Part shown: in pieces, positions 20,371 through 53,578 of the stretch | How positions within the stretch are numbered: the stretch's first letter is position 1 | Layout: each line of letters starts with the position of its first letter | Origin: an uncultured Acidobacteriaceae bacterium | Lineage (GTDB): Bacteria; Acidobacteriota; Terriglobia; Terriglobales; Acidobacteriaceae | Assembly (NCBI GenBank): GCA_963749985.1 | Contig: CAVVOS010000006.1 | Location: forward strand, 429,590 to 493,589 | Reading direction: 5' to 3' | DNA: 64,000 nt | Program-made: the position numbers and the translations under genes | Notes under the pieces: model-generated | Told to the model about the DNA's origin: nothing | Database searches by the model: none | Seen by the model: only the letters and a program-made list of their open reading frames with translations

Positions 20371-20394
20371 GCGTCAGCGAATATAGCACGCGTT

Positions 20395-23654: not shown

Positions 23655-24410
23655 GTGAGACGCACACTCTTTCCCATCCCCTTTCCCGCTCTGTCACCCT
23701 GAGCGCAGCATAACGTCCACGAAGTGGACGTCATGCGCAGTCGAAGGATCCCTACCCCCCTACACCCCACCGTCGGCCTAGCAAGGCATTTCCACGACGT
23801 ATGCAGCGTAAAGCCTTCGGGTGCGCAGCTTCCAGCGCCGCGAACAACCCCACCCCCACCACAACCCCTGTCATTCCGACGCGCGAGCGCAGCGAGACAG
23901 AAGGAACCTGCTGTTGACTTTCGCATGCACCACTCCCCCGGCGTCATCCCGAGCGCAGCCGTTCTTCCGGCGGAGCGAGGGATCTCCCGCAAATCCTCAC
24001 CGCGCTCCTGTGGGACGCACACTCCTGTCCCTCGCCTTTGCCCCTTCTCTGTCATCCTGAGCGCAGCATAACGTCCACGAAGTGGACGTCATGCGCAGTC
24101 GAAGGATCCCTACCCCCTACACCCCACCGTCGGCCTAGCAAGGCATTTCCACCACGTATGCAGCGTAAAGCCTTCGGGTGCGCGGCTTCCAACGCTGCGA
24201 ACAACCCCACCCCCACCACCAACCCTTGTCATTCCGACGCGCGAGCGCAGCGAGACAGGAGGAACCTGCTGTTGACTCTTGCATGCGCCACTCCCCGGCG
24301 TCATCCCGAGCGCAGCCGTTCTTCAGGCGGAGCGAGGGATCTCCCGCAAATCCTCACCGCGCTCGTGTGAGACGGACACCCTCTCCGTCGCCTTTGACCC
24401 TGATTTGCTT
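23655..24410. repeat. 358-bp tandem duplication (~2.1 copies), each unit made of three GTCATYC-type REPs
   Basis: CTGTCA(C/T)CCTGAGCGCAGCATAACGTCCACGAAGTGGACGTCATGCGCAGTCGAAGGATCCCTACC starts at both 23691 and 24049 (period 358). The internal GTCATTCCGACGCGCGAGCGCAGCGAGACAG and GTCATCCCGAGCGCAGCCGTTCTTC modules are also repeated. Confidence 0.95.
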
Positions 24411-26275: not shown

Positions 26276-26442
26276 GGGAAATCCGGGGACAGGGAAATCC
26301 GGAAATCCGGGGACAGGAAATCCGGGGACAGACAGGAAATCCGGGGACAAGGAAATCCGGGGACAGACGGGACGTTCACCATTTTCTGGAGAGTTACCTC
26401 CTCAACGTCACATCACAAATCCTCCACCTTCAACCGCGTATC
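26276..26442. repeat. GAAATCCGGGGACAG-headed element (copy 2, expanded head)
   Basis: 5-6 tandem GAAATCCGG(GGACAG) units (26276-26366), then the same ~75-bp tail as copy 1. Confidence 0.95.
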
Positions 26443-26791: not shown

Positions 26792-26826
26792 GGCTGAAGC
26801 CCGAAAGCCGAAGCCCGAAGCCCGAA
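26792..26826. repeat. GAAGCC-hexamer tract
   Basis: GGCTGAAGCCCGAAAGCCGAAGCCCGAAGCCCGAA, directly upstream of the radical SAM gene RBS (CAGGAGCC). Confidence 0.8.
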
Positions 26827-31277: not shown

Positions 31278-31297
31278 CGTCCCGGAAGACCCGGAGG

Positions 31298-32167
31298 GGA
31301 AACCCGGGGACAGACGGGACGTTCCCCGGTTTTCGGCGACCAATATGGGAACGAGCCACCCAATACTAACCCGAAACCTGTGCTGTCTGGTTCCTAACAC
31401 GCCTTCCCGATGATATTTTCTGGGCATGGCTCGCTTGCCTCGCGTGGTTCTTGCCGACGTTGCTCATCATGTTACGCAGCGCGGCAATGCCCGGCAAGTG
31501 ATCTTGGCCGACGACGCGGACCGCACGGCTTACCTCGACTTGCTGCGGCAATATTCCCAACTCTACCGTCTTTGCGTGTTGGGCTACTGCCTGATGTCCA
31601 ATCACGTGCACTTAGTCGTGATTCCCCGCACCCCTGAGGCCTTGTGGCAAGCTCTCAAACAGATACACGGACGCTATGCGGCGTATTGGAACGCGCGCGC
31701 GTCGTCCAGTGGGCACGTGTGGCAGGGGCGATTTTATTCCTGCCCTCTGGACGACGCGCACCTGTGGGCGGCGCTGCGCTACGTGGAGTTGAACCCGGTG
31801 CGCGCCGGCATGGCATTCGCGGCGCAGGAGTGGCGATGGTCGAGCGCGGCGGCTCACTGTATGTCCGGTGCCGCCGACCCGATGCTGGAAATGGAAGCGT
31901 GGCACAAACGATGGACGGTGGCGGAGTGGAAGGCGCATCTGACGGCCGGAGAGTCGGCGATCGATATTGACGCCCTGCGCCGGTGCACGCACACCGGCCG
32001 ACCGCTTGGAACAACCGAATTCGTCGCTCAGCTCGAACAGGCGACCTCGCGCCCGCTGGCTCCGCGCAAGGGAGGACGGCCCAAAAAGCCCGCCGCCGAT
32101 GCGCAGGATGGTTTTGCATTTGTTGCCTGAGGAAATCGGGGAACGTCCCGTCTGTCCCCAGGTTTTC
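31298..32167 (+). mobile_element. REPtron: RAYT gene bracketed by inverted REPs
   Basis: Left GAAACCCGGGGACAGACGGGACGTTCCCCGGTTTTC (31298-31333) is the near-exact reverse complement of right GAGGAAATCGGGGAACGTCCCGTCTGTCCCCAGGTTTTC (32129-32167). The right copy overlaps the RAYT stop codon. Confidence 0.8.
31426..32130 (+). CDS. IS200/Y1-type REP-associated tyrosine transposase (RAYT)
   Basis: HUH motif (CLMSNHVHLVVIP) and catalytic Tyr region (ALRYVELNPVRAGM). 234 aa. Confidence 0.88.
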   Translation: MARLPRVVLADVAHHVTQRGNARQVILADDADRTAYLDLLRQYSQLYRLCVLGYCLMSNHVHLVVIPRTPEALWQALKQIHGRYAAYWNARASSSGHVWQGRFYSCPLDDAHLWAALRYVELNPVRAGMAFAAQEWRWSSAAAHCMSGAADPMLEMEAWHKRWTVAEWKAHLTAGESAIDIDALRRCTHTGRPLGTTEFVAQLEQATSRPLAPRKGGRPKKPAADAQDGFAFVA

Positions 32168-32308
32168 CATTACGGCAGGAACGGGTGGAAGCTCAGGGCG
32201 GGCGACGAGTTGGAGGTGGCGATTTGGAACCCGCAGAGTGGGATGGGGCCTGCGCTGTACCGTGTGAGGGTGATGGCGTCGCAATGACATTGGTCGGCTG
32301 GAAAAAAG

Positions 32309-35632: not shown

Positions 35633-35677
35633 CGAAGAATCGGCGGGGAGGGGGTAACTAGAAGAGTGCGGGGAGGG

Positions 35678-35721
35678 GATTTAGTAATTTGGTAATTTTG
35701 TAATTGGGTAATTTGAAAAGC
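35678..35721. repeat. AT-rich GTAATTT-heptad element (solo arm)
   Basis: GATTTAGTAATTTGGTAATTTTGTAATTGGGTAATTTGAAAAGC. Confidence 0.9.
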
Positions 35722-35770
35722 TGAAGGCCAAAGAGCTTCACCACAGTCGGACAGCCGGGTAGGCGCGGGC

Positions 35771-35803
35771 AAACACCAGGTCCCTCGCTGCGCTCGGGAT
35801 GAC
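35771..35803. repeat. GTCATYC-family REP (reverse orientation)
   Basis: AAACACCAGGTCCCTCGCTGCGCTCGGGATGAC. Confidence 0.8.
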
Positions 35804-35816
35804 AATCTGTTCTGGT

Positions 35817-36041
35817 TTACGCTGGCCTGCCACCGCCTACGAAGTGGACGATTTCGAGGCGGTCGCCGTCTTTCAGCAGGGTTTCGGGCCAGCGGTCGCG
35901 GGGGACGATGGCGCGGTTGAGTTCGACGGCGACGCGGTCGGACTGCATGGCGAGGGATTCGATCAGGGCTGCGAGGGTGAATGGGGCGGGAGGCGCGGGG
36001 TCTGGGAAGGTGCGGGGTTCGTCGTTGATGTGGAGGTTCAT
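35817..36041 (-). CDS. thiS: ThiS/MoaD-like sulfur carrier protein with 3-aa extension past the Gly-Gly
   Basis: MNLHINDEPRTF...VAVELNRAIVPRDRWPETLLKDGDRLEIVHFVGGGRPA*. ThiS-like throughout, but it ends GGG-RPA. Confidence 0.6.
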   Translation of the reverse strand: MNLHINDEPRTFPDPAPPAPFTLAALIESLAMQSDRVAVELNRAIVPRDRWPETLLKDGDRLEIVHFVGGGRPA

Positions 36042-36093
36042 GGGACGCGGGATGCCGCATGAAATCGGCTTAGATCAGTTTAGCAGTTGCCTT

Positions 36094-36136
36094 CCCACTT
36101 CTCGCGCAAAGGGCGCGCGAGAAATGGGGCACCCGG
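36094..36136. repeat. REP (CCACTTCTCGCG...GGGGCACCCGG type)
   Basis: CCCACTTCTCGCGCAAAGGGCGCGCGAGAAATGGGGCACCCGG. Confidence 0.85.
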
Positions 36137-36263
36137 CATTCTCTCATGAGCCGCGCTACGCTTGGCTGGACAGCCGAGGCGGCTGTCCCTACATGGTCCA
36201 TCTCCCTACATGGTGCGGGTGTGGCTTCCGACAAAAATGCCGCCGCGCTACGCAGATCGATGA

Positions 36264-36848
36264 TTACTCGGTTTTGCGGAGGGCGAATTTGCGGGTGGCG
36301 GTGCGGCCTTCGTGGGTGGCTTGGACGAGGACGGAGGAGTCGGACAGGACGGACTCTTCGACTTCGATGGAGATGCCGGCGCTGCCGGCGGCGTCGGTGA
36401 CGGCCTGGGTATAGAAAGGAGCGGCGTCGGGACGAGCGAAACGGAAGATGAGGCGAGCCCCGGGGACGGCGGTGCCGGATTCGGTGACGCGGAGTTGCAT
36501 GGTCAGGCTGCGATCGGCGAGGACGGAGGCGGCGTTCACCCATTCGACTTCCAACTGCTTGATGGTGGCCAGAACTTCGGATTCGGCGTGGTCGAGGACG
36601 GCCTCCAACTTGCCTTCGCGAATGGCTTCCAGGACCAGGCGATGCTGGTCGCGGAGTTGCTGCTCTTTTTGGGGATCGCCGAAACCGGCCTGGGTGGCGG
36701 AGGTGGCATAGGAGACCGCCTTCTTGCCGACGCAGCGGCCGCGGACGAAGACCTGGGTCTGGAGCAGTTTTTCGCTCTCGCGGGCCTCACTTTGCACGTG
36801 GTAGATGGTGTCGCCGTGCTTGACGTCGGTATTGAAGCCAAAAATCAT
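36264..36848 (-). CDS. Hypothetical protein
   Basis: 194 aa with a coherent, non-repetitive sequence and an Ig-like beta-rich C-terminal half. No family recognised. Confidence 0.55.
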   Translation of the reverse strand: MIFGFNTDVKHGDTIYHVQSEARESEKLLQTQVFVRGRCVGKKAVSYATSATQAGFGDPQKEQQLRDQHRLVLEAIREGKLEAVLDHAESEVLATIKQLEVEWVNAASVLADRSLTMQLRVTESGTAVPGARLIFRFARPDAAPFYTQAVTDAAGSAGISIEVEESVLSDSSVLVQATHEGRTATRKFALRKTE

Positions 36849-36880
36849 TTTGTAATTTGGTAATTTTGTAATTTGGTAAA
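36849..36880. repeat. AT-rich GTAATTT-heptad element
   Basis: TTTGTAATTTGGTAATTTTGTAATTTGGTAAA fills the whole spacer between the start of 36264..36848 and the stop of 36881..37237. Confidence 0.9.
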
Positions 36881-37237
36881 TTAACCAGCTCGTCGCGCTG
36901 TGTGCTGAGACGCTGTGAAAATCGCACTCGGTTCACGCGCTTCTTTCAAAATGTCTTCGCAACGCTTAACGGGCACGATTTCACAGTCTGACAGCATTTC
37001 CAGCCAGAAGACAGTTTCGTCCGCCTCCTCTACCACCAGTCCGATTTTAGCAATCCACTCGGCACGCGATCTTCCTCTGCATGCAGCTCGATAGTTCGCC
37101 GCGACCGACGTGCCACAACGAAGCAACTGCTTGCCCACAACCTGCGCGTCGGCTGTGTGGGGCAGCGAGCGGTAAAGTCTAACAATCCGAATTGCAAAGG
37201 TCTTCGTCCGGTCACGCAAATCCTCGGGTGTCGACAT
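36881..37237 (-). CDS. Four-helix-bundle protein (23S rRNA intervening-sequence protein / Avd-like family), copy 1
   Basis: 118 aa. LRDRTKTFAIRIVRLYRSLPHTADAQVVGKQLLRCGTSVAANYRAACRGRSRAEWIAKIGLVVEEADETVFWLEML. Confidence 0.85.
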   Translation of the reverse strand: MSTPEDLRDRTKTFAIRIVRLYRSLPHTADAQVVGKQLLRCGTSVAANYRAACRGRSRAEWIAKIGLVVEEADETVFWLEMLSDCEIVPVKRCEDILKEAREPSAIFTASQHTARRAG

Positions 37238-37249
37238 GGGAGAAGTCTA

Positions 37250-37284
37250 ATCTTGTAATTTGGTAATTTAGTAATTTGAAAAAC
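37250..37284. repeat. AT-rich GTAATTT-heptad element
   Basis: TCTTGTAATTTGGTAATTTAGTAATTTGAAAAACC. Confidence 0.9.
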
Positions 37285-37409
37285 CTGGACACCCTGAGCT
37301 TACAACGTTTGGGCGGGTATCTGGGTTCGAATTTCAATCACCCGATTACGCGATCAGACGGTTGCTGAATTTTTCCTTTCCCGAATCTGCAAAATGACGC
37401 GTCCTTCCC

Positions 37410-37439
37410 TTGACACTGTTGCGCACCAGCCCCTAATCT
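37410..37439 (+). promoter_or_regulatory. Candidate promoter of the nuo operon
   Basis: TTGACA (37410-37415), 18-nt spacer, TAATCT (37434-37439), about 45 nt upstream of the nuoA start. Confidence 0.25.
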
Positions 37440-37484
37440 AGAATGTTTAATCAGTGCTGGCGCGAATTATATATATCCCATCCT

Positions 37485-37880
37485 ATGCCCGACAATTATT
37501 TCGCTGGCTACCTGCCGTTTCTGATCCACATTCTGCTGGCGGGCGGGATTGCGACTGCCATTATTGTGCTTTCCTGGCTGATCGGGCAGCGAAAACCGAC
37601 GCGGGCCAAGATGTCGGCGTATGAGTGCGGGATGACGCCGGTGGGCGACTCGCGAGGGCGCTTCTCGGTGCAGTTCTACATGGTAGCTATGCTGTTCATT
37701 CTGTTCGACGTAGAGGCGGTTTTCCTGTATCCCTGGGCGGTAATTCTGCGCGATCTGAAGCATTTCGGGCTGTGGGAGATGCTGGTGTACATCGGGATTG
37801 TTCTGGTGGGCTTCTTCTATATATGGAAGAAGGGCGTGCTGGAATGGGGCCCGGCGAAGGCGCGGAGGGGGGAACTCTGA
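37485..37880 (+). CDS. nuoA: NADH-quinone oxidoreductase subunit A
   Basis: Start at MPDNYFAGYLPFL. SAYECGM...FYMVAMLFILFDVEAVFLYPWA. Confidence 0.92.
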   Translation: MPDNYFAGYLPFLIHILLAGGIATAIIVLSWLIGQRKPTRAKMSAYECGMTPVGDSRGRFSVQFYMVAMLFILFDVEAVFLYPWAVILRDLKHFGLWEMLVYIGIVLVGFFYIWKKGVLEWGPAKARRGEL

Positions 37881-38377
37881 TGCCTTTGGCGCCCGCGATC
37901 ACGGATGTGGAGGAACTGAAGGGTCATCCGGCGGTGGCTTGTCTGCTGGCGTGGAATGCGGCGGCGGTGACGGGAGTGAAGTTCGATCGGGAAGAGATGA
38001 CGATCTGGGTTGATCGGGCAAACATTCGCGAGGCGTGCGCGATTCTGCGGGACGATGCGGAATGCGTGTTCAATTTCCTTTCCGACGTGACTTGTGTGGA
38101 CTGGTATCCGGCGGAGCCCAGGTTTGAAGTGGTCTACCACCTGCTTTCGATTCCCAAGAAAGAACGGGTACGGCTGAAAGTGCGGCTGGATAGTGCGAGT
38201 CCGGCGGTGGAGTCGCTGACCTCGATTTGGCCGGGGGCGAATTATTTCGAGCGCGAAGTGTTTGACCTGTTCGGGATCCGGTTTAACGGGCATCCTTATA
38301 TGAGGCGGATTCTGATGCCGGAGGATTGGGAAGGCCATCCGCTGCGGAAAGATTATCCGGTGGAGGGCTACCGCTAG
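37880..38377 (+). CDS. nuoC: NADH-quinone oxidoreductase subunit C
   Basis: ATG overlaps the nuoA stop (TGATG). WPGANYFEREVFDLFGIRFNGHP...DWEGHPLRKDYP. Confidence 0.93.
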   Translation: MPLAPAITDVEELKGHPAVACLLAWNAAAVTGVKFDREEMTIWVDRANIREACAILRDDAECVFNFLSDVTCVDWYPAEPRFEVVYHLLSIPKKERVRLKVRLDSASPAVESLTSIWPGANYFEREVFDLFGIRFNGHPYMRRILMPEDWEGHPLRKDYPVEGYR

Positions 38378-38383
38378 TTCGCT

Positions 38384-39589
38384 ATGGCCCATCTAGCTCC
38401 CACACCTGTTCTTGAGCCCGGCCAGGATCGGACCATGATCCTGAACATGGGGCCGCAGCATCCGTCGACGCACGGGGTGCTGCGGGTTCTGCTGGAAATT
38501 GATGGCGAAACCATTGTGCGGATCATGCCGGATATCGGCTTTCTGCATACGGGGATCGAGAAGACCTGCGAGGCCAAGTTTTATCAGCAAGTGGTGCCGC
38601 TGACCGACCGCATCGACTACCTGTGTCCGATGACCAACAATCTGTGCTACGTGCTGGCGGTAGAAAAGCTGCTGGGGCTGGAGATTCCGCCGAAGGCACA
38701 GTGGATGCGGGTGCTGATGAACGAGTTGACGAGGATCAACTCACACCTGGTGTGGCTGGGCACGCATGCGATGGATATTGGGGCGCTGACGGTGTTCTTG
38801 TATTGCTTCCGGGAGCGCGAAGAAGTGCTGAAGATGTTCGAGATGATCAGCGGACAGCGCATGATGACCTCGTACTTTCGAGTGGGAGGGATTGCGCTGG
38901 AGCCGCCGCTGGGATTCTTTGAGAGGGTGCGGGAGTTTGCGGGACGCTTTCCGGAGAAGGTGGATGAATACGAAAACCTGCTGACGGGAAATCCGATCTT
39001 TCTGATGCGCACCAAGGGCGTGGCCAAGCTGAGCGCGGAAGATGCGATTGCGTTGGGCGCGACTGGGCCGACGCTGCGCGGGAGCGGAGTGGACATCGAC
39101 CTGCGGCGGGATATGCCGTACTCGGGCTATGAGAACTTTAAGTTCAAAGTGCCGGTGGCGCAGGAAGGCGACGTTTTCGCGCGGTACATGTGCCGCGTGC
39201 TGGAGTTGCGGGAGTCGATTGAAATTGTGAAGCAGGCGCTGGATGGTATGCCGGAAGGGCCGATCAAGGCCGACGCTCCGGGCATTGTGCTGCCCCACCG
39301 GGAGAAGATGAAGACGCAGATGGAAGCGCTCATCTACCACTTTAAGATTATTACGGAAGGCTTTGCGGTGCCGGCGGGCGAGGTGTATCAGGCGGTGGAA
39401 TCGCCGCGCGGCGAGATGGGCTACTACATCGTGAGCGATGGGACGGCGAAGCCTTATCGAGTACACATGCGGGCCGCGTGCTTCGCGAATCTGCAGACGT
39501 TGGCCAAGATGTGCGAAGGCGGGCTGATTGCAGATGTGGTTGCGGCTATCGGATCGATTGATATCGTGCTGGGAGAGATCGACCGGTGA
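38384..39589 (+). CDS. nuoD: NADH-quinone oxidoreductase subunit D
   Basis: LNMGPQHPSTHGVLRVLLEIDGE...IDYLCPMTNN...SPRGEMGYYIVSDG. Confidence 0.96.
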   Translation: MAHLAPTPVLEPGQDRTMILNMGPQHPSTHGVLRVLLEIDGETIVRIMPDIGFLHTGIEKTCEAKFYQQVVPLTDRIDYLCPMTNNLCYVLAVEKLLGLEIPPKAQWMRVLMNELTRINSHLVWLGTHAMDIGALTVFLYCFREREEVLKMFEMISGQRMMTSYFRVGGIALEPPLGFFERVREFAGRFPEKVDEYENLLTGNPIFLMRTKGVAKLSAEDAIALGATGPTLRGSGVDIDLRRDMPYSGYENFKFKVPVAQEGDVFARYMCRVLELRESIEIVKQALDGMPEGPIKADAPGIVLPHREKMKTQMEALIYHFKIITEGFAVPAGEVYQAVESPRGEMGYYIVSDGTAKPYRVHMRAACFANLQTLAKMCEGGLIADVVAAIGSIDIVLGEIDR

Positions 39590-39633
39590 GGAATTTGTAA
39601 TTTTGTAATCGGGTAATTTGTAAATTGAAAAGC
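39590..39633. repeat. AT-rich heptad element, left arm of cassette 2
   Basis: GGAATTTGTAATTTTGTAATCGGGTAATTTGTAAATTGAAAAGC. Begins at the nuoD stop. Confidence 0.9.
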
Positions 39634-39646
39634 GGGCGGTGATCAG

Positions 39647-40006
39647 ATGTCCACCGGGCCCCAAGAATTGCGTGATCGAACGAAGGCTTTTGCTGTTCGA
39701 ATCGTGAGGCTTTATCGATCGCTGCCACACACCGCCGACTCGCAGGTGGTCGGCAAACAGTTGTTGCGCTGCGGCACCGCGGTTGCGGCAAATTATCGAG
39801 CAGCTTGTCGAGGACGTTCGCGCGCAGAATGGCTTGCCAAGATCGGTTTGGTGGTGGAAGAAGCGGATGAGACGGTGTTTCGGCTGGAAATGCTTTCGGA
39901 CTGCGATATCGTGAAGGGTGAGGGCTGCAAGGATATTTTGAAGGAAGCGCATGAGTTGAGTGCGATTTTTACCGCGTCTCAGCACACGGCGCGGAAGGCA
40001 AGTTGA
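39647..40006 (+). CDS. Four-helix-bundle protein (23S rRNA IVS / Avd-like family), copy 2
   Basis: 119 aa. Highly similar by eye (most positions identical) to copy 1: LRDRTKAFAVRIVRLYRSLPHTADSQVVGKQLLRCGTAVAANYRAACRGRSRAEWLAKIGLVVEEADETVF. Confidence 0.88.
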   Translation: MSTGPQELRDRTKAFAVRIVRLYRSLPHTADSQVVGKQLLRCGTAVAANYRAACRGRSRAEWLAKIGLVVEEADETVFRLEMLSDCDIVKGEGCKDILKEAHELSAIFTASQHTARKAS

Positions 40007-40035
40007 ATTACAAATTACCGATTACCGAATTACAA
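40005..40035. repeat. AT-rich heptad element, right arm of cassette 2 (inverted)
   Basis: GAATTACAAATTACCGATTACCGAATTACAA. Reverse-complement type of the left arm. It ends at the nuoE ATG. Confidence 0.9.
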
Positions 40036-40509
40036 ATGAGATTTTCGGACGAATTCGAGGCGCGGTTTGCGGAGATGGTGCCACATTATCCGACCAAGCG
40101 GTCGGCGCTGGTGCCGACTCTGCTTTATGCGCAGGATGAAGTTGGATTTTTGTCCGATGAGGTGATCGCGGAGCTGGCGGGGCGGCTTGAATTGACGGAA
40201 CTCGAAGTGCGGAACGTGATCAGCTATTACTCGATGCTGACCACGAAGCCGCGCGGGAAATTTAATGTGCAGGTTTGTACGAATATCAGTTGCCTGGTGC
40301 GGGGCGGCGAGGACATTTTGCGCCACTGCGCGAAGAAGTTGGGGGTTGGCCACAAAGGAACGACTCCTGACGGTATGTTTACGCTCGAAGAGGTGGAATG
40401 CATTGGGGCGTGCAGTTGGGCTCCGGCGGCGCAGGTGAACTACGATTTTCATGAGAACCTGAGCGTGGAGAAGATGGACAAGATCCTGGAGGACTATCGA
40501 CGTGGTTAA
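40036..40509 (+). CDS. nuoE: NADH-quinone oxidoreductase subunit E
   Basis: Start at MRFSDEFEARF (the earlier codons of the track ORF are repeat sequence). VCTNISCLVRGG...ECIGACSWAP (2Fe-2S ligands). Confidence 0.93.
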   Translation: MRFSDEFEARFAEMVPHYPTKRSALVPTLLYAQDEVGFLSDEVIAELAGRLELTELEVRNVISYYSMLTTKPRGKFNVQVCTNISCLVRGGEDILRHCAKKLGVGHKGTTPDGMFTLEEVECIGACSWAPAAQVNYDFHENLSVEKMDKILEDYRRG

Positions 40510-40615
40510 GGAATTTGTAATTTGGTAATCGGGTAATTTTGTAACTTAAGAACCGGACGGAGTCAGGGGCCGACGGGTTTCAAATTACAAATTTACCCGA
40601 TTACAAAATTACAAA
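40510..40615. repeat. Gene-less inverted pair of AT-rich heptad arms
   Basis: GGAATTTGTAATTTGGTAATCGGGTAATTTTGTAACTT (40510-40547), a 31-nt GC-rich centre, then TTCAAATTACAAATTTACCCGATTACAAAATTACAAA (40579-40615). This fills the nuoE-nuoF spacer exactly. Confidence 0.92.
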
Positions 40616-41929
40616 ATGGCAACTCTGGTTTCCCATCCCGATGAGGTAAAGGTCGTTAGCCGACGCTTTGGTCTGGGCGCGACGAACATCGATCGTTATC
40701 TCGAGCTGGACGGCTACAAAGCCGTGCAGAAGGCGCTTGGGATGGACGCGGACGGCATTATTAATGAGGTGAAGAATTCGGGACTGCGCGGGCGCGGCGG
40801 GGCCGGGTTTTCGACCGGGATGAAGTGGTCATTTGTACCGAAGCAATCGGCTAAGCCGAAGTATGTGCTGTGCAACGGCGACGAGAGCGAACCGGGCACT
40901 TGCAAAGATCGGCTGATTTTTGAGCAGGATCCGCACTCGGTGATCGAAGGAGTGATGATTGCCGCGCTGGCAGTGGGCGCAGCCAGCGGGTATATCTACA
41001 TTCGCGGCGAATATCGATATTTGTCGATCATCATGCAGAAGGCGATTCGCGAGGCCTATGCCAAGGGCTTTGTTGGCAAGAACATTTTTGGCAGCGGGCG
41101 CGATCTGGATATTTACTGGCACGGGGGAGCCGGGGCTTACGAAGTGGGCGAGGAATCGGCGTTAATGGAATCGCTCGAGGGCAAGCGCGGGATTCCGCGG
41201 ATTCGGCCACCGTTTCCGGCGGTGGTGGGACTGTGGGGCGGGCCTACCGTTATTAATAATGCGGAAACTTTGGCCAGCGTGCCGCACATTATTCTGGGGG
41301 GCGCGGATTGGTTTGCCAAGATTGGGACGCCGAAGAATGGCGGCACGCGGCTGTTCTGCTTGAGCGGCAATGTGGCGAAGCCTGGGGTTTACGAACTGCC
41401 GATGGGTTACAACTTGAAGAAGATGATTTACGAGGTGGGTGGCGGCATTCCGAACGGGCGCGCGCTGAAAGCCGTGGTGCCGGGCGGGGCGTCGTGTCCG
41501 TGCCTTACCGCCGACGAGGTCGATGTCAACATGGATTTCGATTCGCTGGCAAAGGCCGGTTCCATGCTGGGTTCCGGCGGCGTGGTGGTGATCGACGACA
41601 CGCAGTGCATTGTGAAGTTCGCGTTGCGGACGATGAAGTTCTATCAGCATGAAAGTTGCGGATGGTGCATTCCTTGCCGTGAAGGCACGGACTGGCTCAA
41701 GAAAACTCTGCTGCGAGTTCACTCCGGCGGCGGTGTGAAGAAAGACATCGACAACATGCAATACCTGGCGGAGAACATGCTGGGGAGGACGTTCTGTCCG
41801 CTGGGCGATGCGGCCGCGATGCCGACGATTGCGTTCGTGAAAAAATTCCGGAAGGAATTTGAGGATCATTTGGAAGGCAGGCCGTGCCCGTATGAAAAGG
41901 CTGGCATGGCGGAAGCGGTGTTGGCGTAG
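40616..41929 (+). CDS. nuoF: NADH-quinone oxidoreductase subunit F
   Basis: GLRGRGGAGFSTGMKWSF (FMN/NADH site). ESCGWCIPCREG (4Fe-4S N3). Confidence 0.97.
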   Translation: MATLVSHPDEVKVVSRRFGLGATNIDRYLELDGYKAVQKALGMDADGIINEVKNSGLRGRGGAGFSTGMKWSFVPKQSAKPKYVLCNGDESEPGTCKDRLIFEQDPHSVIEGVMIAALAVGAASGYIYIRGEYRYLSIIMQKAIREAYAKGFVGKNIFGSGRDLDIYWHGGAGAYEVGEESALMESLEGKRGIPRIRPPFPAVVGLWGGPTVINNAETLASVPHIILGGADWFAKIGTPKNGGTRLFCLSGNVAKPGVYELPMGYNLKKMIYEVGGGIPNGRALKAVVPGGASCPCLTADEVDVNMDFDSLAKAGSMLGSGGVVVIDDTQCIVKFALRTMKFYQHESCGWCIPCREGTDWLKKTLLRVHSGGGVKKDIDNMQYLAENMLGRTFCPLGDAAAMPTIAFVKKFRKEFEDHLEGRPCPYEKAGMAEAVLA

Positions 41930-41934
41930 CGAGA

Positions 41935-41975
41935 CGATTTAGTAATTGGGAAATTTAGTAATTGAGTAATTTGGT
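41935..41975. repeat. AT-rich heptad element, left arm of cassette 3
   Basis: GATTTAGTAATTGGGAAATTTAGTAATTGAGTAATTTGGTG. Confidence 0.9.
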
Positions 41976-41983
41976 GTTGCGGT

Positions 41984-42343
41984 ATGCGTTCGCGACCTGA
42001 AGAGCTTCGAGATCGTACCAAGGCTTTTGCTCTTCGTGTCATTCGGCTGTTTCGCTCGTTGCCGTATAAGACCGATACTCAAGTCTTAGGCAAACAGCTT
42101 TTGCGTTGCGGGACTTCGGTGGCGGCGAACTACCGGGCCGTTTGTCGCGCACGATCGAAAGCGGAGTTCGTAGCCCGCTTGGGAATTGTGGCGGAGGAGG
42201 CGGACGAAGCGGTGCTGTGGCTCGAATTGCTGATCGAATCAGGAATTCTAAAGTCGGAGATGACAGAAGAGATCTTGAAAGAGGCCCGAGAGCTAGCGGC
42301 AATACTGACTGCGTCTCGGGAAACGGCGAGGAAGGCGGCTTGA
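41984..42343 (+). CDS. Four-helix-bundle protein (23S rRNA IVS / Avd-like family), copy 3
   Basis: 119 aa. LRDRTKAFALRVIRLFRSLPYKTDTQVLGKQLLRCGTSVAANYRAVCRARSKAEFVARLGIVAEEADEAVLWLELL. Confidence 0.88.
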   Translation: MRSRPEELRDRTKAFALRVIRLFRSLPYKTDTQVLGKQLLRCGTSVAANYRAVCRARSKAEFVARLGIVAEEADEAVLWLELLIESGILKSEMTEEILKEARELAAILTASRETARKAA

Positions 42344-42345
42344 TG

Positions 42346-42387
42346 TCAAATTACTCAATTACTAAATTGCCCAATTACTAAATTCCC
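42346..42387. repeat. AT-rich heptad element, right arm of cassette 3 (inverted)
   Basis: TCAAATTACTCAATTACTAAATTGCCCAATTACTAAATTCCC. Ends at the nuoG ATG. Confidence 0.9.
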
Positions 42388-44745
42388 ATGGCTGACGTAA
42401 CACTCACTGTCGACGGCAAGAAGGTGACGGCTCCGGCCGGGACGCTCCTTATTGAGGCCTGCAAGAGCGCGGGCATCGAGGTGCCTTCGTTTTGCTATTA
42501 CCCCAACCTGTCGCTGCAGGGCGCTTGCCGCATGTGTTTGGTGAAGATTGAGAAGATGCCCAAGCTGCAGACCGCATGCACGACGGTGATCAGCGAAGGC
42601 ATGATCGTGACTTCCGACAGCGACGAGATCAAGCAGGCGCGGAAGGCGATGCTGGAGATGCTGCTGGGGAATCATCCCCTGGATTGTCCGGTGTGCGATG
42701 CAGGCGGCGAGTGCGAACTGCAGGACATGACGTTCAGTTACGGCGCCGCCGAGTCGAGATTCATGGAGGCGAAGAATCATAAGGATGAGCAGCAGTGGTC
42801 GCCGGTGGTGTTCTTCGACCGGCCGCGCTGCATTCTCTGCTACCGCTGCGTGCGGGTTTGCGGCGAAGGCATGGACGTTTGGGCTCTGGGGGTGCAGAAC
42901 CGCGGCGTGAGTTCGATCATCGCGCCGAATAAAGAGGATCACCTGGAGTGCGAAGAGTGCGGGATGTGCATCGACATCTGCCCGGTGGGCGCGCTGACTT
43001 CGGGCGCGTATCGCTACAAGACGCGGCCGTGGGAGATGAAGCATGTGGGGACGATCTGCACGCACTGTGGTGACGGCTGCAAGACCACGCTGGGCGTGCG
43101 CCGCGCCGATACGGGGATGGAGATTGTGCGAGGCGATAATCGCGATAAGAGCGGCACGAACGGAGATTTCCTGTGTATTAAGGGGCGGTACGGGTTTGAC
43201 TTTGCGAATCATGAAGAGCGGCTGACGCGGCCGCTGATTCGCGTGAACGGCAAGCTCACTCCGGCGACGTGGGAAGAAGCGTTTGCAGTGATCGGCAAGA
43301 AGTTTGCGGAAGTGCGCGACCGCGATGGCGGGGCGGCGATTGGGGTGATTGGTTCAACGCGCACGACAAACGAAGAAGCCTACCTGCTTTCCAAGTTTGC
43401 GCGAGTGGTGCTGAAGACTAATAATGTGGACCACCACCGTACCGCCGACTTCCCTGCCCTGGCGGCTGCGCTTCGCGGCAAGGCTGATGCGACGGCGAGC
43501 ATGGCGGACGTTTTTGCAGCTCCGGCCATTCTGCTGATTGGGAACGATCCGACGGAGCAGCATCCGCTGCTGGCCTGGCAGATTCGTAACAACGTGCGGC
43601 TTCACCGGGCGAAGCTTTACGTGATCAACTCGAAGTCGATCAAATTGCGGCGGCAGGCTGCGAGCTTTATGCAGATTCCCGCGGAAGCGGAAGGGAGAGT
43701 TGCGGCGTTCCTGGCGGGCGATGATTCGGCGGCGGATGCGCTGGTTAGTTCGTCCGCGGGTAATGACGTCTGGGTTGCGCTGCGTGACAAGCTGCGCGGG
43801 GAACAGAATCTGGTTATCGTTTTCGGTTCCGAAGTGCGGGGAGACGACCTGGCGAGTCTGGTGAAGTTCGGGTCAGAAATCTCCGGAGCCAAGTTTATTT
43901 GCCTGGCGGACTATGCCAATTCCCGTGGCGCGGCTGACATGGGGTTGTATCCCGACTTGCTGCCGGGATATCACCCGACGGCGGGGAACAGCGAGTTCCA
44001 CAAGGAATGGGGCGACGTGCCGCAGGGTGCGGGGCTTGATCTGGCGGGCATGGTTGAGGCGGGAAGATCGGGCGCGTTGAAGGCGCTCTACGTCGTCGGG
44101 TCGAATCCGGTGGGACGGTTGGAGATCGATCCGTTCGCATTCTCGAAGAGTTTCGTGGTGGTGCAGGACATGTTTCTGACGGAGACGGCGGTGGTGGCTG
44201 ACGTGGTGCTGCCGGCGGCGAATGCTTACGAGAAGTCAGGCACGTTCACCAACACTTGCGGGGACGTGCAACTGGTAAAGAAGGCCGGCGAAGTCACGGG
44301 CACGAAAACCGATTTCGAGATGATTGTGCGCATGGCCGATGCCATGGGTTTCGATGTGCGTGGACTCGTGCCCTTCGGCGGTGGAACGCACGCGGACATG
44401 GGCCAGTCTCGCGGGGCGCAGTCGGGCGAGGCGGATCGGCATGCGGTGTGGCTGGAGGCGCACGGGCTGGAGCCGAAGATGAGCCCGTTCGACCCCACGG
44501 CGATTCTGGATGAAATTCAGCGGCTGGTTCCGGGCTATGACGTGTCCCGCATGAATTTGCTGGCGGGCAACAGCGAGCATACGTCGCTGGAGAAAGCTGG
44601 GCCGGGGGTTGCGCACAGGGCGGAATCGATTGCTCCGGCGAACGATGATCTTTTTACTTCTGGAACGCTGGGACGGTATTCGCGAGCGCTGAAGGCAGTG
44701 ATGGAGAGTCACGAGGTGAAGCCGGCGGCGGTTGCGGCGGACTGA
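42388..44745 (+). CDS. nuoG: NADH-quinone oxidoreductase subunit G
   Basis: 2Fe-2S and 4Fe-4S motifs (FCYYPNLSLQGACRMCLV; HPLDCPVCDAGGECELQ; CILCYRCVRVC; CGMCIDICPVGAL) plus a molybdopterin-oxidoreductase-like domain. Confidence 0.96.
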   Translation: MADVTLTVDGKKVTAPAGTLLIEACKSAGIEVPSFCYYPNLSLQGACRMCLVKIEKMPKLQTACTTVISEGMIVTSDSDEIKQARKAMLEMLLGNHPLDCPVCDAGGECELQDMTFSYGAAESRFMEAKNHKDEQQWSPVVFFDRPRCILCYRCVRVCGEGMDVWALGVQNRGVSSIIAPNKEDHLECEECGMCIDICPVGALTSGAYRYKTRPWEMKHVGTICTHCGDGCKTTLGVRRADTGMEIVRGDNRDKSGTNGDFLCIKGRYGFDFANHEERLTRPLIRVNGKLTPATWEEAFAVIGKKFAEVRDRDGGAAIGVIGSTRTTNEEAYLLSKFARVVLKTNNVDHHRTADFPALAAALRGKADATASMADVFAAPAILLIGNDPTEQHPLLAWQIRNNVRLHRAKLYVINSKSIKLRRQAASFMQIPAEAEGRVAAFLAGDDSAADALVSSSAGNDVWVALRDKLRGEQNLVIVFGSEVRGDDLASLVKFGSEISGAKFICLADYANSRGAADMGLYPDLLPGYHPTAGNSEFHKEWGDVPQGAGLDLAGMVEAGRSGALKALYVVGSNPVGRLEIDPFAFSKSFVVVQDMFLTETAVVADVVLPAANAYEKSGTFTNTCGDVQLVKKAGEVTGTKTDFEMIVRMADAMGFDVRGLVPFGGGTHADMGQSRGAQSGEADRHAVWLEAHGLEPKMSPFDPTAILDEIQRLVPGYDVSRMNLLAGNSEHTSLEKAGPGVAHRAESIAPANDDLFTSGTLGRYSRALKAVMESHEVKPAAVAAD

Positions 44746-44748
44746 AAA

Positions 44749-44885
44749 GATTTAGTAATTGAGTAATTTTGTAATTGGGTAATTTGAAACCCAAAATCTG
44801 CGCGTGACGAAAGGAAGGTATAGGGAATTAAGGCGAAATCGTTTTTTCCATTACAAAATTACTAAATTACCCCAATTACCCAATC
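44749..44885. repeat. Gene-less inverted pair of AT-rich heptad arms with ~60-nt centre
   Basis: GATTTAGTAATTGAGTAATTTTGTAATTGGGTAATTTGA (44749-44787) ... CCATTACAAAATTACTAAATTACCCCAATTACCCAATC (44848-44885), in the nuoG-nuoH spacer. Confidence 0.92.
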
Positions 44886-44891
44886 AAACCA

Positions 44892-45929
44892 ATGCCGGTG
44901 CCTTTTTACATTTTCATCCTCGTGTCGGTGATCAAGTCGGTGATCGTGCTCGTGGTGCTGCTCACCGCGGTCGCATACACGGTGTGGCTGGAACGCAAAG
45001 TTGTGGGCCACATGCAGAATCGGTGGGGACCCTCGCGGGTGGGGCCGTTTGGGCTGCTGCAGCCGGCGGCCGACGGACTGAAGTTCCTGTTCAAAGAAGA
45101 TCTCACGCCGCCGCACGTTTACAAGCCGCTGTTTCTGGCTGCGCCAATGATGGCGCTGATCTTCGCGCTGACTTCGATCTCGGTAATCCCTTTTGGAAAT
45201 TCGATTACGATTGGCGGCTTAAACATTCCGCTGCAAATCACCGACGTGAACATTGGGCTGCTGCTGATTCTGGGCGTGACCTCGATGGGCGTGTATGGAG
45301 TGGCGCTGGCGGGGTGGTCGTCGAACAATAAATACTCGTTGCTGGGCGGACTGCGGGCGAGCGCGCAGATGATCAGCTACGAAATTGCGCTGGGACTGTC
45401 GCTGGTGGGGGTGTTAATTCAGTCGGGAAGCTTCAGCTTGCGCGCGATCGTCGATGCGCAGGGCGGACATTTCTGGGGATTCATTCCGCGCTGGAATATT
45501 ATTCACGGGCAGTTCATTGGTTTTTTTATTTACTTGATTGCGGCTTACGCGGAAACCAACCGTATTCCATTTGACCTGCCGGAGGCCGAAACCGAACTGG
45601 TGGCGGGATACCACACGGAATACAGTTCGATGAAGTTTGCCATGTTCTTCATGGCGGAATACGCCAACATGATTACGGTGGCTTGCGTGGCCACGCTGTT
45701 GTTTTTTGGAGGATGGCATGGGCCGCTGTTTGGGCCTCCGCTGCTGCAGGCGTTGCTGCCGGTATTCTGGTTTGCGGCAAAGATTTTCTGTTTTCTCTTT
45801 CTTTACATCTGGGTGCGCGGGACGTTGCCGCGCTTCCGTTACGACCAACTGATGGCTTTCGGCTGGAAGTTTCTGCTGCCGCTGGCAATTGCGAATCTGG
45901 TGGCGACGGCGATTGCCGTGGCCTGGTGA
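44892..45929 (+). CDS. nuoH: NADH-quinone oxidoreductase subunit H
   Basis: ERKVVGHMQNRWGPSRVGPFGLLQPAADGLKF...AETNRIPFDLPEAETELVAGYHTEYS. Confidence 0.96.
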   Translation: MPVPFYIFILVSVIKSVIVLVVLLTAVAYTVWLERKVVGHMQNRWGPSRVGPFGLLQPAADGLKFLFKEDLTPPHVYKPLFLAAPMMALIFALTSISVIPFGNSITIGGLNIPLQITDVNIGLLLILGVTSMGVYGVALAGWSSNNKYSLLGGLRASAQMISYEIALGLSLVGVLIQSGSFSLRAIVDAQGGHFWGFIPRWNIIHGQFIGFFIYLIAAYAETNRIPFDLPEAETELVAGYHTEYSSMKFAMFFMAEYANMITVACVATLLFFGGWHGPLFGPPLLQALLPVFWFAAKIFCFLFLYIWVRGTLPRFRYDQLMAFGWKFLLPLAIANLVATAIAVAW

Positions 45930-46107
45930 GGCAGTACTCAGTCCCGAGTACCTAGTGCCCAGTACGACCGGGTGCTTGATTACTGCCGGGTACTGGGTAC
46001 TGGGTACTTGCTATGAGACAGTTGCCAGTACCTAGTACCCAGTTGCCAGTAGAGGCACTGGGCTTTGGTTTACTTGCGACTGGGTACTGGCAACTGGGTA
46101 CTGATTC
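45930..46107. repeat. CCAGTAC/CCAGTTG-motif repeat block occupying the position where nuoI is expected
   Basis: GGGTACTGGGTACTGGGTACTTG...CAGTTGCCAGTACCTAGTACCCAGTTGCCAGTAG...ACTGGGTACTGGCAACTGGGTACTG. 178 bp with no ferredoxin-type ORF. Confidence 0.85.
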
Positions 46108-46626
46108 ATGAGTTTTCATCTCATTTTGTTTCTGGCTTTCGGGGCGGTTTGCGTGGGCGGGGCGGTCAACCTGCTGGCGCAGCGGCATCCCATTAACAGC
46201 GCGCTGTCGCTGATCGCGGTGATGGCTGCGCTGGCCGGCGAATATCTTTTGCTGGGCGCGGAGTTCGTGGCTGCGGTGCAGGTGATTGTGTATGCCGGCG
46301 CGATTATGGTGCTGTTCGTCTTTGTCATTATGCTGCTGAATGCGGGCGAAGAAGAGCGTACGAAAGGAAGCCGTGTCGCGATTCTGCTGGGTGTGCCGGG
46401 GATGCTGACGGGCAGCATACTGACGGCGTGGGTGGTGCTGCGGCATTCGGGGACTGAGGCTGTGCCGATCGGTGCATTGCCGGGACCTCCGAAAGAGATC
46501 GCGCAGCTTCTGTTTCATGAATTTCTGTTGCCGTTTGAAGTCACGTCGGTGTTAATCCTGATCGCCATCATGGGCGCCGTGGTGCTGGCGAGCAGGCCGG
46601 ACTCTGCGGCCGGGAAGGCGGACTGA
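46108..46626 (+). CDS. nuoJ: NADH-quinone oxidoreductase subunit J
   Basis: 172-aa membrane protein. [48 protein letters not shown]. Confidence 0.93.
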
Positions 46627-46940
46627 TGGTGCAATCGTATGTGCCGCTATCTTATTACTTGCTGCTGAGCGGGTTCCTGTTTGCCTGCGGCGTGGTGGGA
46701 TTTCTGATCAAGCGCAACATCATCACCATCTTCATGTCGATTGAGCTGATGTTGAACGGGGTGAATCTTTCCTTCGTGGCGTTCGCGGCGCACTGGCATG
46801 CGCTGGCGGGGCAGGTTTTCGTCTTCTTTGTGATGGTGGTGGCGGCAGCGGAGGCGGCGGTTGGGTTGGCGATCATCATCGCGGTTTACCGCACGCGCGA
46901 GACTTTGAACGTGGATCAGGTGAACCTGCTCAAGCTATGA
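46626..46940 (+). CDS. nuoK: NADH-quinone oxidoreductase subunit K
   Basis: TGATG overlap with nuo[19 protein letters not shown]...[17 protein letters not shown]. Confidence 0.95.
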
Positions 46941-48874
46941 ATTCATCCCTCAATCTTTGGCTGATCCCGATTCTGCCGCTGGCGGGGGCTGCGATCAACG
47001 GCTTTCTGGGCAAGAAGTCGTCGCGCCAGGCTGTGACGACTGTCGCGCTGTTCTTTAGCGGGGCGGCTTTCGCGATGGCGTTTTGGGTTGCGCTGCGCTT
47101 CTCGTCGTTGACGCTTCCCTACCACGAGTATCTGGCGCACTGGATTCGTTCGGGGAGTTTCAGCGCGGATTTCGCCTTCTATCTCGATCAGCTTTCGCTG
47201 GTGATGTTGCTGGTGGTGACCGGAGTCGGATTCCTGATTCACATCTACTCTGTGGGCTACATGTGGGACGACCCCAGCTACTATCGATTTTTCAGCTATC
47301 TGAACCTGTTCATGTTTTTCATGCTGACGCTGGTGCTGGCCAACAACTATCTGGTGATGTTTATCGGGTGGGAGGGCGTGGGACTGGCGTCGTATCTGCT
47401 GATCGGATTCTGGTTCACGAAAGACTCGGCGGCATCGGCGGGGAAAAAGGCGTTCATCGTAAACCGGATTGGGGATTTCGGGTTTCTGATTGCGCTTTTT
47501 CTGCTGATCAAGCATTTTAAGTCGCTGAACTTTGACCAGGTATTTCAGAGCATCTCTCCGATGAGCCCGGAAACCGCGGGCACCGGGCTGCTCACAGCGA
47601 TCGGCATTTTGCTGATGGTGGGGGCTTGCGGAAAGTCAGCGCAGATACCTTTATATATCTGGCTGCCGGACGCGATGGAAGGTCCAACGCCGGTTTCGGC
47701 ATTGATTCACGCGGCGACCATGGTGACGGCTGGCGTGTACATGGTTGCGCGCTCGCATGTGATCTTTGAGCGCGCGCCCACGGCATTGACCGTTGTGGCG
47801 ATCATCGGGACGCTGACCGCGTTCTTTGCCGCGACGATCGGCATCGCGCAAACCGATATTAAAAAGGTGCTGGCCTACTCGACCGTTTCGCAGCTCGGCT
47901 ACATGTTTGTGGCTTGCGGCGTGGGCGCGTTCTCGGCTGGGATTTTCCATTTGATGACACATGCCTTCTTCAAAGGACTGCTGTTCCTGGCGGCGGGATC
48001 GGTGATTCATGCGGTGGGCGGCGAGCAGGACATGCGCAAGATGGGCGGGCTGAAGTCGTTTATCCCGTGGACGTTTCTCACGATGGGGATCGCGACACTG
48101 GCGATCTCCGGGATCCCGCCGCTGGCGGGCTTCTGGAGCAAAGACGAAATTCTCTGGAAGGCTTACCAGGTCAGCTGGGTGTATTGGCTGATCGGACTGA
48201 TTACGGCATTCATCACGTCATTTTACATGTTCCGACTGTTGTACATGACGTTCTTCGGCGACTATCACGGGGTGCAGGTGGACACGCACGGGCACGGACA
48301 CGACGCCCATGGACATGGCGAACCACACGAGAGTCCGATGGTGATGCTGGTGCCCCTGATGATCCTGGCGGCGCTTTCGCTGGTGGGCGGGCTGGTGGGG
48401 ATCGGAAACCGCTTCGAACATTTTCTGGCACCAGTGTTTGGCGCGACGGACGCTGTGGAAGGGGCAAGTCACGGAACAGAGGTGCTGCTGATGGGCGTGT
48501 CCGTGGCAGTGGCGCTTTCGGGATGGTGGCTGGCATATCTTCTCTATTACAAGCGGCCGGAATTGCCGCAGAAGATTGCGGACGCGCTCGGCGGGTTCTA
48601 CCAGACGGTCGTGCACAAATACTACGTGGACGAAATCTACGCAGCGGTGTTCGTCAAGCCGCTGATCGATGGCTCGACGCGAATCCTTTGGCAGGACGTG
48701 GACCGGAAAATTATCGATGCGGCGGTGAATGACGCCGGCGACGGAGCACGCCATGTTTCCGACGAAGCGCGCCATATGCAATCCGGCAACATTCGCTCGT
48801 ATGCGGGCTGGATCGCGGCCGGGTCGGCGGTGGTGATTGCCTTCATGATCTGGATGTGGACGGGAACGCGATGA
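46937..48874 (+). CDS. nuoL: NADH-quinone oxidoreductase subunit L
   Basis: 645-aa antiporter-like subunit. ATGA overlap with nuo[16 protein letters not shown]...[36 protein letters not shown]. Confidence 0.96.
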
Positions 48875-53544: not shown

Positions 53545-53578
53545 TTCACCACAGAGGCACAGAGACACAGAGAAAACC
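53545..53578. repeat. REP (CACCACRGAGRCACAGAG type)
   Basis: TTCACCACAGAGGCACAGAGACACAGAGAAAACC. Same orientation as 52450..52483. Confidence 0.8.

Follow-up and report, generated by a model that had tools for sequence, protein, structure and literature searches.

Hairpin cassettes with octad-repeat arms and four-helix-bundle genes at the junctions of an acidobacterial nuo operon

The stretch of DNA considered here (the window; 64,000 nt, positions counted from its first letter) belongs to contig CAVVOS010000006.1 of an uncultured member of the Acidobacteriaceae, whose closest named relatives are found in Candidatus Sulfotelmatobacter (Acidobacteriota, Terriglobia). It contains a nuo operon (37485-51974) with the gene order A, C, D, E, F, G, H, J, K, L, M, N, and in and around this operon lie short AT-rich arms built of tandem 8-nt units, many of them arranged as inverted pairs, together with three genes (w1, w2 and w3) for a small four-helix-bundle (4HB) protein. 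Inverted arms that enclose a 4HB gene are called cassettes below, and those that enclose no open reading frame (ORF) are called ORF-less hairpins. The features, from left to right, are the following:

35679..35716, plus strand: solo octad arm of four GTAATTNN units without an inverted partner, between a ThiS-like and a MerR-family gene
36847..36881, plus strand: octad arm between the w3 stop codon and the ATG of a RomY-like gene (minus strand)
36881..37237, minus strand: 4HB gene w3, 118 aa (TIGR02436, 73.7 bits)
37253..37280, plus strand: octad arm of three units, left arm of an older ORF-less hairpin, folding with 37320-37359
37320..37359, minus strand: degenerate right arm pairing with 37253-37280 (fold of 37245-37370, z -3.2; by-eye alignment to relative L105)
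39590..39633, plus strand: left arm of the nuoD/nuoE cassette, five units and an inner TTGAAAAGC end, directly after the nuoD TGA
39647..40006, plus strand: 4HB gene w1, 119 aa (TIGR02436, 67.3 bits)
40004..40037, minus strand: right arm of the nuoD/nuoE cassette, overlapping the stop codon of w1 and the A and T of the nuoE ATG
40510..40549, plus strand: left arm of the ORF-less nuoE/nuoF hairpin, directly after the nuoE TAA
40578..40615, minus strand: right arm of the nuoE/nuoF hairpin, ending at the nuoF ATG (arms 42 nt, 86% complementary)
41936..41975, plus strand: left arm of the nuoF/nuoG cassette (37 nt, 97% complementary)
41984..42343, plus strand: 4HB gene w2, 119 aa (TIGR02436, 86.9 bits)
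42347..42387, minus strand: right arm of the nuoF/nuoG cassette, ending 0-4 nt before the nuoG ATG
44749..44787, plus strand: left arm of the ORF-less nuoG/nuoH hairpin
44849..44885, minus strand: right arm of the nuoG/nuoH hairpin, ending 6 nt before the nuoH ATG

The arms were delimited by searching the 64-kb window for two adjacent GTAATTNN units (GTAATTNNGTAATT) with at most one mismatch. All 28 matches fall inside 35684-44870 (shuffles give 0.04), and chaining them yields exactly 11 arms within 9.2 kb, the same number and coordinates at which an earlier note on this DNA, made from the letters alone, had arrived. GTAATT stands on the plus strand in seven arms (35684, 36852, 37255, 39590, 40510, 41942, 44755) and on the minus strand in four (40006, 40583, 42349, 44849). 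The earlier note had described the unit as a heptad, which proved wrong: Tandem Repeats Finder reports a period of 8 in 10 of the 11 arms and a period of 7 for the right arm at nuoD/nuoE (40006-40037) only, so that the unit has to be regarded as an octad, GTAATT plus two variable bases. Its other observations on the layout are borne out; the arms are indeed AT-rich in a genome of about 60% G+C (17-30% G+C against 59.4% for the whole window), they occupy the nuoD/nuoE (D/E), E/F, F/G and G/H junctions as well as three sites upstream of nuoA, inverted arms bracket the 4HB genes at D/E and F/G, the third 4HB copy on the minus strand is flanked by two arms in direct orientation, and the arms abut the neighbouring codons, with 0-7 nt from the stop codon to the left arm and 0-6 nt from the right arm to the next ATG. 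The spacers of the E/F and G/H hairpins measure 36-64 nt and contain no gene. The identical architecture is present in 10 metagenome contigs, several of them from peat samples, and since these were assembled independently, it is not an assembly artefact.

Upstream of nuoA the arrangement is less regular. The gene beside w3 is called RomY-like on the basis of a match to the RomY N-terminal domain; read on the minus strand, the arm at 36847..36881 is a right-type (AATTAC) arm ending at the next start codon, and on the strand of w3 itself, AATTAC-type arms stand on either side of the gene. A canonical cassette occupies the romY/nuoA site in relative L187. In L105 this site holds an intact hairpin, to which the left arm (37253-37280) and the spacer of the decayed hairpin are homologous. 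Further towards nuoA, the motif pair CCCTTGACAC-N17-TAATCTAGAA (37409-37440) is conserved in all orthologues (L080, L105, L057) and is probably the nuo promoter; as this candidate promoter lies downstream of the hairpin, the romY/nuoA hairpin and w3 would not be part of the nuo transcript. The region of the solo arm (35670-35800) folds no better than shuffles on either strand, and promoter-like and terminator-like sites are not enriched in the arms over shuffles.

As RNA, the paired arms (34-44 nt, 86-97% complementary) form stems of 30-40 bp. The E/F hairpin folds with -43.5 kcal/mol (z -6.2) and the G/H hairpin with -37.1 kcal/mol in the sense direction (z -4.3; antisense z -1.9), while the F/G stem reaches a z of -5.35 and the D/E stem, in which the first two nucleotides of the nuoE start (A and U) take part, a z of -2.2. 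For 18 cassettes taken from two junctions, the RNAalifold consensus comprises 30 pairs with 93.7% of the cells paired, and compensatory changes occur in 11 of these pairs; none of 500 shuffles was as good, and slid controls were 19-47% paired. In 32 nuo cassettes, a median of 4 nt separates the base of the stem from the stop codon, and the median to the next start codon is likewise 4 nt. Comparison with Rfam gave only sub-threshold resemblances of the elements to miRNA hairpins, and nothing in L119.

All three 4HB proteins score well above the curated TIGR02436 cutoff of 24 bits, and PF05635 is assigned to each of them in precomputed Pfam calls. The AlphaFold model of w2 (pLDDT 91.3) consists of four helices; a fold search with Foldseek places it closest to 2RLD (TM 0.81-0.89), which also matches in sequence (E = 5.5e-18), and to 2GSC (TM 0.72-0.83), followed by Avd alone (4DWL) and Avd within the ribonucleoprotein of a diversity-generating retroelement (DGR; 8UB7), both at TM 0.72-0.80. 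Identity to Avd is 13-14% only, and the sequence profile does not reach it. The structure 2RLD contains five chains, and Xcc0516 is a pentamer (as cited in PMC4990558). The earlier note was thus right in recognising a PF05635-like protein of the 'S23p' family known from intervening sequences (IVS) of 23S rRNA, with which Avd shares the fold (PMC4990558, PMC10053308). The TIGR02436/PF05635 subfamily of the window proteins has at least 7,990 matches; the PADLOC and PHROG families (defence, phage) contain no match for the 4HB protein, and in viral contigs, members of its clade are rare (6 loci with identities up to 52%).

Orthologues at F/G show a dN/dS of 0.03-0.05 at a dS of 0.5-0.9, a set that leaves out L105 and L057, where GTG appears to be the start codon of the 4HB gene. 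Such strong purifying selection clearly marks the 4HB protein as functional. Between w1 and w3, the amino-acid identity is 84% and dN/dS is 0.05; a recent origin of w3 as a copy of w1 was considered and rejected, the dS of ~1.9 being older than the species splits. The D/E copy w1 is preceded by GGCGGTGATC, which agrees at 9 of 10 positions with GGAGGTGATC, which we take to be the complement of the 16S rRNA 3' end, and which for this reason is probably a good ribosome-binding site.

The scans of genomes and metagenomes reported from here on count the matches listed, and copy numbers per genome are lower bounds. The metagenome scan with the F/G protein recovered at least 80 loci (58-99% identity). 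Flanking inverted repeats scoring at least 15 are present at 61 of the 72 listed 4HB loci with enough flank (shuffles 0/360), so that 4HB genes elsewhere nearly always come with such arms; the earlier note had named their occurrence without arms as an argument against mobility, a test which the mobile reading passes. Non-cognate arm pairs reach this score in 133 of 566 cases, the median score being 21.2 for cognate and 11.0 for non-cognate arms. A period of 8 is the best one in 56/72 upstream and 63/72 downstream flanks. The unit families vary among elements (GTAATTNN, GCGATTGA/GTGATCGG, GTCATTGA, GGTAAGTT and others) and have an ATT core in common (weight matrix A 0.92, T 0.88, T 0.87), which is almost invariant within the consensus unit G-T-A-A-T-T-G/T-R. 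The anatomy of the element is two inverted arms of 3-6 tandem octads each, with either a ~360-nt 4HB gene or a spacer of 20-80 nt inside.

In species-representative genomes, a scan for three exact octads returned at least 120 array-bearing stretches, which by their record titles derive from ~56 Acidobacteriota, ~35 Chloroflexota, ~10 Bacteroidota and 2 Nitrospiraceae, the rest being scattered AT-rich genomes whose matches may be due to chance; the census asked for by the earlier note therefore finds the arms well beyond this locus, mostly in Acidobacteriota and Chloroflexota. An inverted partner exists for 114 of the 194 arms listed (shuffles 0/150), with a loop of at most 80 nt in 92 of the 114 and mostly 3-5 units per arm. 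Loops of 330-520 nt were listed for seven elements, five of which hold a TIGR02436 4HB gene. Two of these five genes are of the classical type, very divergent TIGR02436 members bracketed by the same kind of arm, in metagenome-assembled genomes (MAGs) of Nitrospiraceae (L028) and Flavobacteriales (L015); BLASTP does not align the L028 protein with w2, the L015 protein is barely detected by a profile from the window clade, and this classical-type cargo was missed by a narrow hidden Markov model (HMM) and recovered by jackhmmer and NCBIfam. Two GTAATT-armed elements (L037 5418-5868 and L096 166-577) have loops of 330-380 nt and no 4HB gene: the L037 loop contains a 123-aa hydrophobic ORF without a family match, the L096 loop is AT-rich and has no good ORF, and either may represent other cargo or a decayed gene.

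Among the matches listed, ORF-less copies (85-140 bp, several per genome) are far commoner than ORF-bearing ones. The nusG-rplK-rplA-rplJ-rplL operon of one Acidobacteriota contig carries five hairpins, each junction being occupied. The left arm of the window's E/F hairpin together with a leader of ~20 nt matches the 5' end of the D/E cassette of L105 at 50 of 58 positions, and this homology fits an origin of the ORF-less hairpin by loss of the ORF. [quoted passage not shown]

Orthologous nuo operons, whose comparison the earlier note had proposed, are indeed polymorphic, a given junction being filled, empty or occupied by an ORF-less element. The D/E cassette is found in the window, L105, L057 and many others, while L080 and L131-L136 are empty there and show an ATGA stop/start overlap. 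At F/G, most relatives have the cassette and L057 an empty 12-nt spacer. The E/F junction holds an ORF-less hairpin in ~30 species, built from at least five unit families, is empty in L168 (3-nt spacer) and L204, and in the more distant relatives L218 and L228 contains a 4HB gene whose arms consist of TTGGCAAT-type units. When the 4HB proteins are arranged in a neighbour-joining tree, the branching does not follow the insertion sites; three protein lineages occur at F/G, and the w1 lineage is present at D/E, F/G and romY/nuoA. The nuo operons host 51 of the 80 4HB relatives listed, and those elsewhere lie between co-directional housekeeping genes (nrdR/icd, lolE/lolD, pfkB/MFS, murQ/murA, gpmI, sucC). 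Comparison of this kind points to mobility by gain, loss and exchange between junctions.

We favour, as a reading with somewhat better than even prospects, that these elements form one family of palindromic hairpin cassettes, akin in kind to the IVS of 23S rRNA that encode S23p, here situated between cistrons and mobile by gain, loss and exchange. The element would be co-transcribed with its operon, and the arms would pair as an AU-rich stem of 30-40 bp, so that the insert is looped out and the upstream stop and the downstream start come to lie within ~8 nt of each other; since stop and start would be brought together in this way, insertions into very short or overlapping junctions would be tolerated. 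RNase III probably cuts the stem, as homology with the rRNA IVS and analogy with the Correia MITEs suggest, and this would segment the polycistronic mRNA and free the 4HB mRNA. The 4HB protein, an Avd/S23p-like basic bundle with pentameric solved relatives, may bind the periodic arms. No transposase is encoded inside the full-length elements, the sole ORF being the 4HB gene, and we therefore infer that they spread by recombination through the arms or by a trans-acting enzyme.

Several points weigh against this reading. All 11 arms are clustered in 9.2 kb of the 64-kb window, unlike the dispersed pattern of a typical MITE, and many species share the F/G cassette by vertical inheritance, which fits domestication as well as a selfish element. 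The gene tables contain no mobilising enzyme within 10 kb of the elements; no ORF of the window combines both reverse transcriptase (RT) motifs in a crude scan of the 64 kb, and no RVT family occurs within +/-10 kb. Target-site duplications are not convincing either, filled and empty sites giving at most a possible TGA at D/E for the GTAATT elements and GAG for the heptad hairpin at nuoH/nuoJ described below. RNase III cleavage and the binding of the arms by the 4HB protein are inferred steps. With the sense strand set by the ORF, the mismatches in cassettes comprise 107 G.U against 62 A.C, an excess suggestive of RNA-level selection, but the count carries no correction for phylogeny and a transcription-associated mutation bias could produce it as well; ORF-less hairpins show no sense-strand excess (39 G.U versus 45 A.C), and RNA-level selection on them is accordingly not demonstrated. 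The earlier note's idea of mobile or once-mobile cassettes therefore stands as far as the polymorphism and the arms beyond this locus are concerned, while a mobilising enzyme and a clear target duplication are missing and F/G is vertical. Its alternative of an RNA structure gains some support from stem covariation and the G.U excess of the cassettes. Its statement that neither an RT nor a transposase is adjacent agrees with the window scan for RT, whereas a RAYT-like Y1 transposase does lie 3.5 kb upstream, together with unrelated repeats.

That the elements have become a domesticated module is a serious rival, which we regard as possible though not probable, and which is compatible with mobile cassettes rather than exclusive of them. 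Here, intercistronic stems selected by the host would set translational coupling and segmental mRNA stability in core operons (nuo, ribosomal proteins), the 4HB protein would act in trans as an RNA-binding regulator, and any mobility would be ancient and without present relevance. The long vertical retention of the F/G cassette at the low dN/dS given above speaks for this, as do the covariation of the stems and the sense-strand G.U excess in cassettes, the position of the stems against stop and start codons, the lack of a Shine-Dalgarno sequence in downstream genes next to an arm, the ATT core, conserved every 8 nt more than pairing alone demands, and the clustering of elements in single operons. 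Such a module is less easily reconciled with close relatives that lack the element at the same junction (L080 at D/E, L057 at F/G, L168 at E/F), with elements in many unrelated operons (such as nrdR/icd, lolE/lolD, sucC and murQ/murA), with the turnover of arm unit families at one site, or with ORF-less hairpins devoid of a strand-specific signal.

A DNA-level or retroelement system appears unlikely to us. The arms would then be cruciforms or protein-binding arrays, and the Avd-like 4HB protein would aid an RT or recombinase acting in trans in a retrohoming-like copying process. A DNA hairpin or cruciform helps target recognition in DGRs, which counts for this explanation, as do the ORF-less hairpins without RNA-strand asymmetry, the occurrence of one 4HB lineage at different hairpin sites, and the fold shared with Avd, a part of the DGR RT ribonucleoprotein in 8UB7. 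Moreover, PF05635 is the commonest family beside DGR reverse transcriptases (PMC10053308). The searches for RT in gene tables and window were negative, however, no pair of template and variable repeats is evident, viral contigs seldom carry the 4HB clade, and direct evidence of cDNA intermediates is absent. Mobilisation of the arms, taken as REP/REPIN elements (REP, repetitive extragenic palindrome), by the RAYT-like Y1 transposase upstream (31426-32130) is very improbable: the gene matches NF047646 (REP-associated tyrosine transposase, RAYT; E = 7e-17, below the family cutoff), and the hairpins resemble REPINs in consisting of a pair of inverted arms with a spacer, but the gene is flanked by its own G+C-rich inverted REPs (GGGGACAGACGGGACGTTCCCC), unrelated to the GTAATT octads, and no homologue of it occurs in the 120 GTAATT-array loci listed, so that this link was rejected. 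Chance low-complexity sequence or an assembly artefact deserves practically no credence. The bare pattern does occur also in giant-virus contigs that are AT-rich and in a few genomes of like composition, and the viral matches are uninformative since they fall mostly in such contigs; for the window, this explanation is refuted by the 28 matches against 0.04 expected at 59% G+C, by the 10 independent assemblies and by stems that covary across species.

Going one step beyond the cassette reading, we tentatively consider, as a rather doubtful extension, that a ring of 4HB subunits is a sequence-specific reader of the 8-nt periodic arms, and that cassettes and ORF-less hairpins together form one trans-acting system. 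As the arms usually have 4-5 units and the solved relatives are pentamers, about one octad would correspond to each subunit. Such a 13-kDa protein might control RNase III processing and translational coupling in core operons (complex I, ribosomal proteins), or else, in the manner of Avd, recruit a polymerase or recombinase that copies the cassette between hairpins. If true, this would explain why the 23S IVS carry a 4HB ORF.

The window contains other repeats and features beside the GTAATT elements. A sister family of G+C-rich heptad hairpins lies further downstream in the operon:

45931..46103: two GGGTACT/CCAGTAC heptad hairpins between nuoH and nuoJ (fold -84.6 kcal/mol, z -7.6)

The first of these (45931-46014, ~84 nt) is cleanly absent from the near-identical strains L004-L008 (L004 13932-14046) and has GAG on both sides, representing a strain-level insertion or deletion. 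The RAYT-like gene and its inverted REPs take up the region 31296-32170, and a cluster of the same REP family (GGAAATCCGGGGACAG...) is situated at 26276-26385. Additional intergenic arrays of short period are found at 10841-11049, 19276-19639, 20393-20496, 26796-26826, 28795-28825 and 53550-53573, composed of heptads (ACTGGCA, TCGGGCT/CCGAAGC) and of CACAGAGA octads; several are arranged as inverted pairs, and higher-order repeats of 80-110 nt occur in some, from which it follows that the genome holds several families of periodic-arm elements. Repeats of a 357-nt unit (23654-24402, 2.1 copies) and a 24-nt unit (15879-16058, 7.5 copies) may lie inside coding sequence. The GC skew is negative over 1-28000 and positive thereafter, with a cumulative minimum near 26-28 kb; the sign change at ~28000 may correspond to a replication origin or terminus, or merely to a switch of gene strand. 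The genes nuoB and nuoI are not in the nuo operon, and no NuoB or NuoI motif was detected anywhere in the 64 kb; presumably, both are encoded elsewhere.

The S23p/4HB family is very large and multi-copy in many phyla, with a function known only for the distant Avd, and rRNA IVS carrying 4HB ORFs have been unexplained since about 1990. In Terriglobia, the architecture of stem plus ORF is the normal habitat of 4HB genes, inside mRNA operons. For the abundant Acidobacteriota of peat and soil, the elements also point to one origin of segmented operon mRNAs and of noise in annotation.

We found no description of 4HB cassettes in mRNA operons or of octad arms, in a literature coverage that is incomplete. 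The Correia/NEMIS elements of Neisseria and the ERIC/IRU elements of enterobacteria are MITEs that likewise are small and intergenic, have inverted repeats, form long stem-loops and are co-transcribed; NEMIS stem-loops are proposed substrates of RNase III, and ERIC elements influence the stability of mRNA (PMC2229807). In contrast to these, the arms described here are tandem octads instead of unique sequence, there is neither a TA target duplication nor a cognate transposase of an insertion sequence, the 'autonomous' partner encodes the 4HB protein only, and copies cluster at successive junctions of single operons. REP/REPIN-RAYT systems also are multi-copy intergenic hairpin doublets, from which the GTAATT arms differ in being periodic and AT-rich. 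Avd of the DGRs has the same four-helix-bundle fold, is basic and pentameric and contacts RNA in the RT ribonucleoprotein, but no RT is near the window elements and a template/variable repeat pair is not evident. The short tandemly repeated repetitive (STRR) sequences of cyanobacteria consist of 7-nt units in tandem, are intergenic and comprise several unit families per genome, a trait which the window shares with its GTAATTNN, GGGTACT, CCGAAGC and ACTGGCA families; to our knowledge, STRR units do not occur as paired inverted arms around a gene. In phage T7, intercistronic RNase III stems segment polycistronic mRNA, and these stems are neither repeats nor do they carry a gene.

The closest likeness is to the 23S rRNA IVS, described in Coxiella burnetii, Leptospira, Haemophilus and Brucella, which contain the same protein family (PF05635/TIGR02436) in the loop, have the same size of ~430-480 nt, are bounded by terminal inverted repeats forming a stem of ~28-40 bp around the S23p ORF, likewise have short tandem repeats in the 5' arm just before the ORF, and are patchy among relatives (PMC4990558). 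The IVS of C. burnetii is 428 nt long, with a terminal-repeat stem of 28 bp that is cut by RNase III mid-stem and the S23p ORF in its loop; its 5' arm contains tandem GACAGAT heptamers just upstream of the ORF, which is reported to be decaying and probably untranslated (PMC4990558). RNase III excision is demonstrated for the IVS and would apply to the window cassettes by extension. The IVS sits in helix 9, 25 or 45 of 23S rRNA, whereas the window copies all lie between protein-coding genes, and conserved 16S/23S probes across 356 sequences gave one chance match and no rRNA context. In further contrast to the IVS, the arms here have a period of 8 and measure 30-45 nt, the ORF is under strong purifying selection, and ORF-less derivatives are abundant. 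Given the same architecture with covarying stems, conserved proteins and abundant ORF-less satellites, the IVS looks like a special case of a general cassette family.

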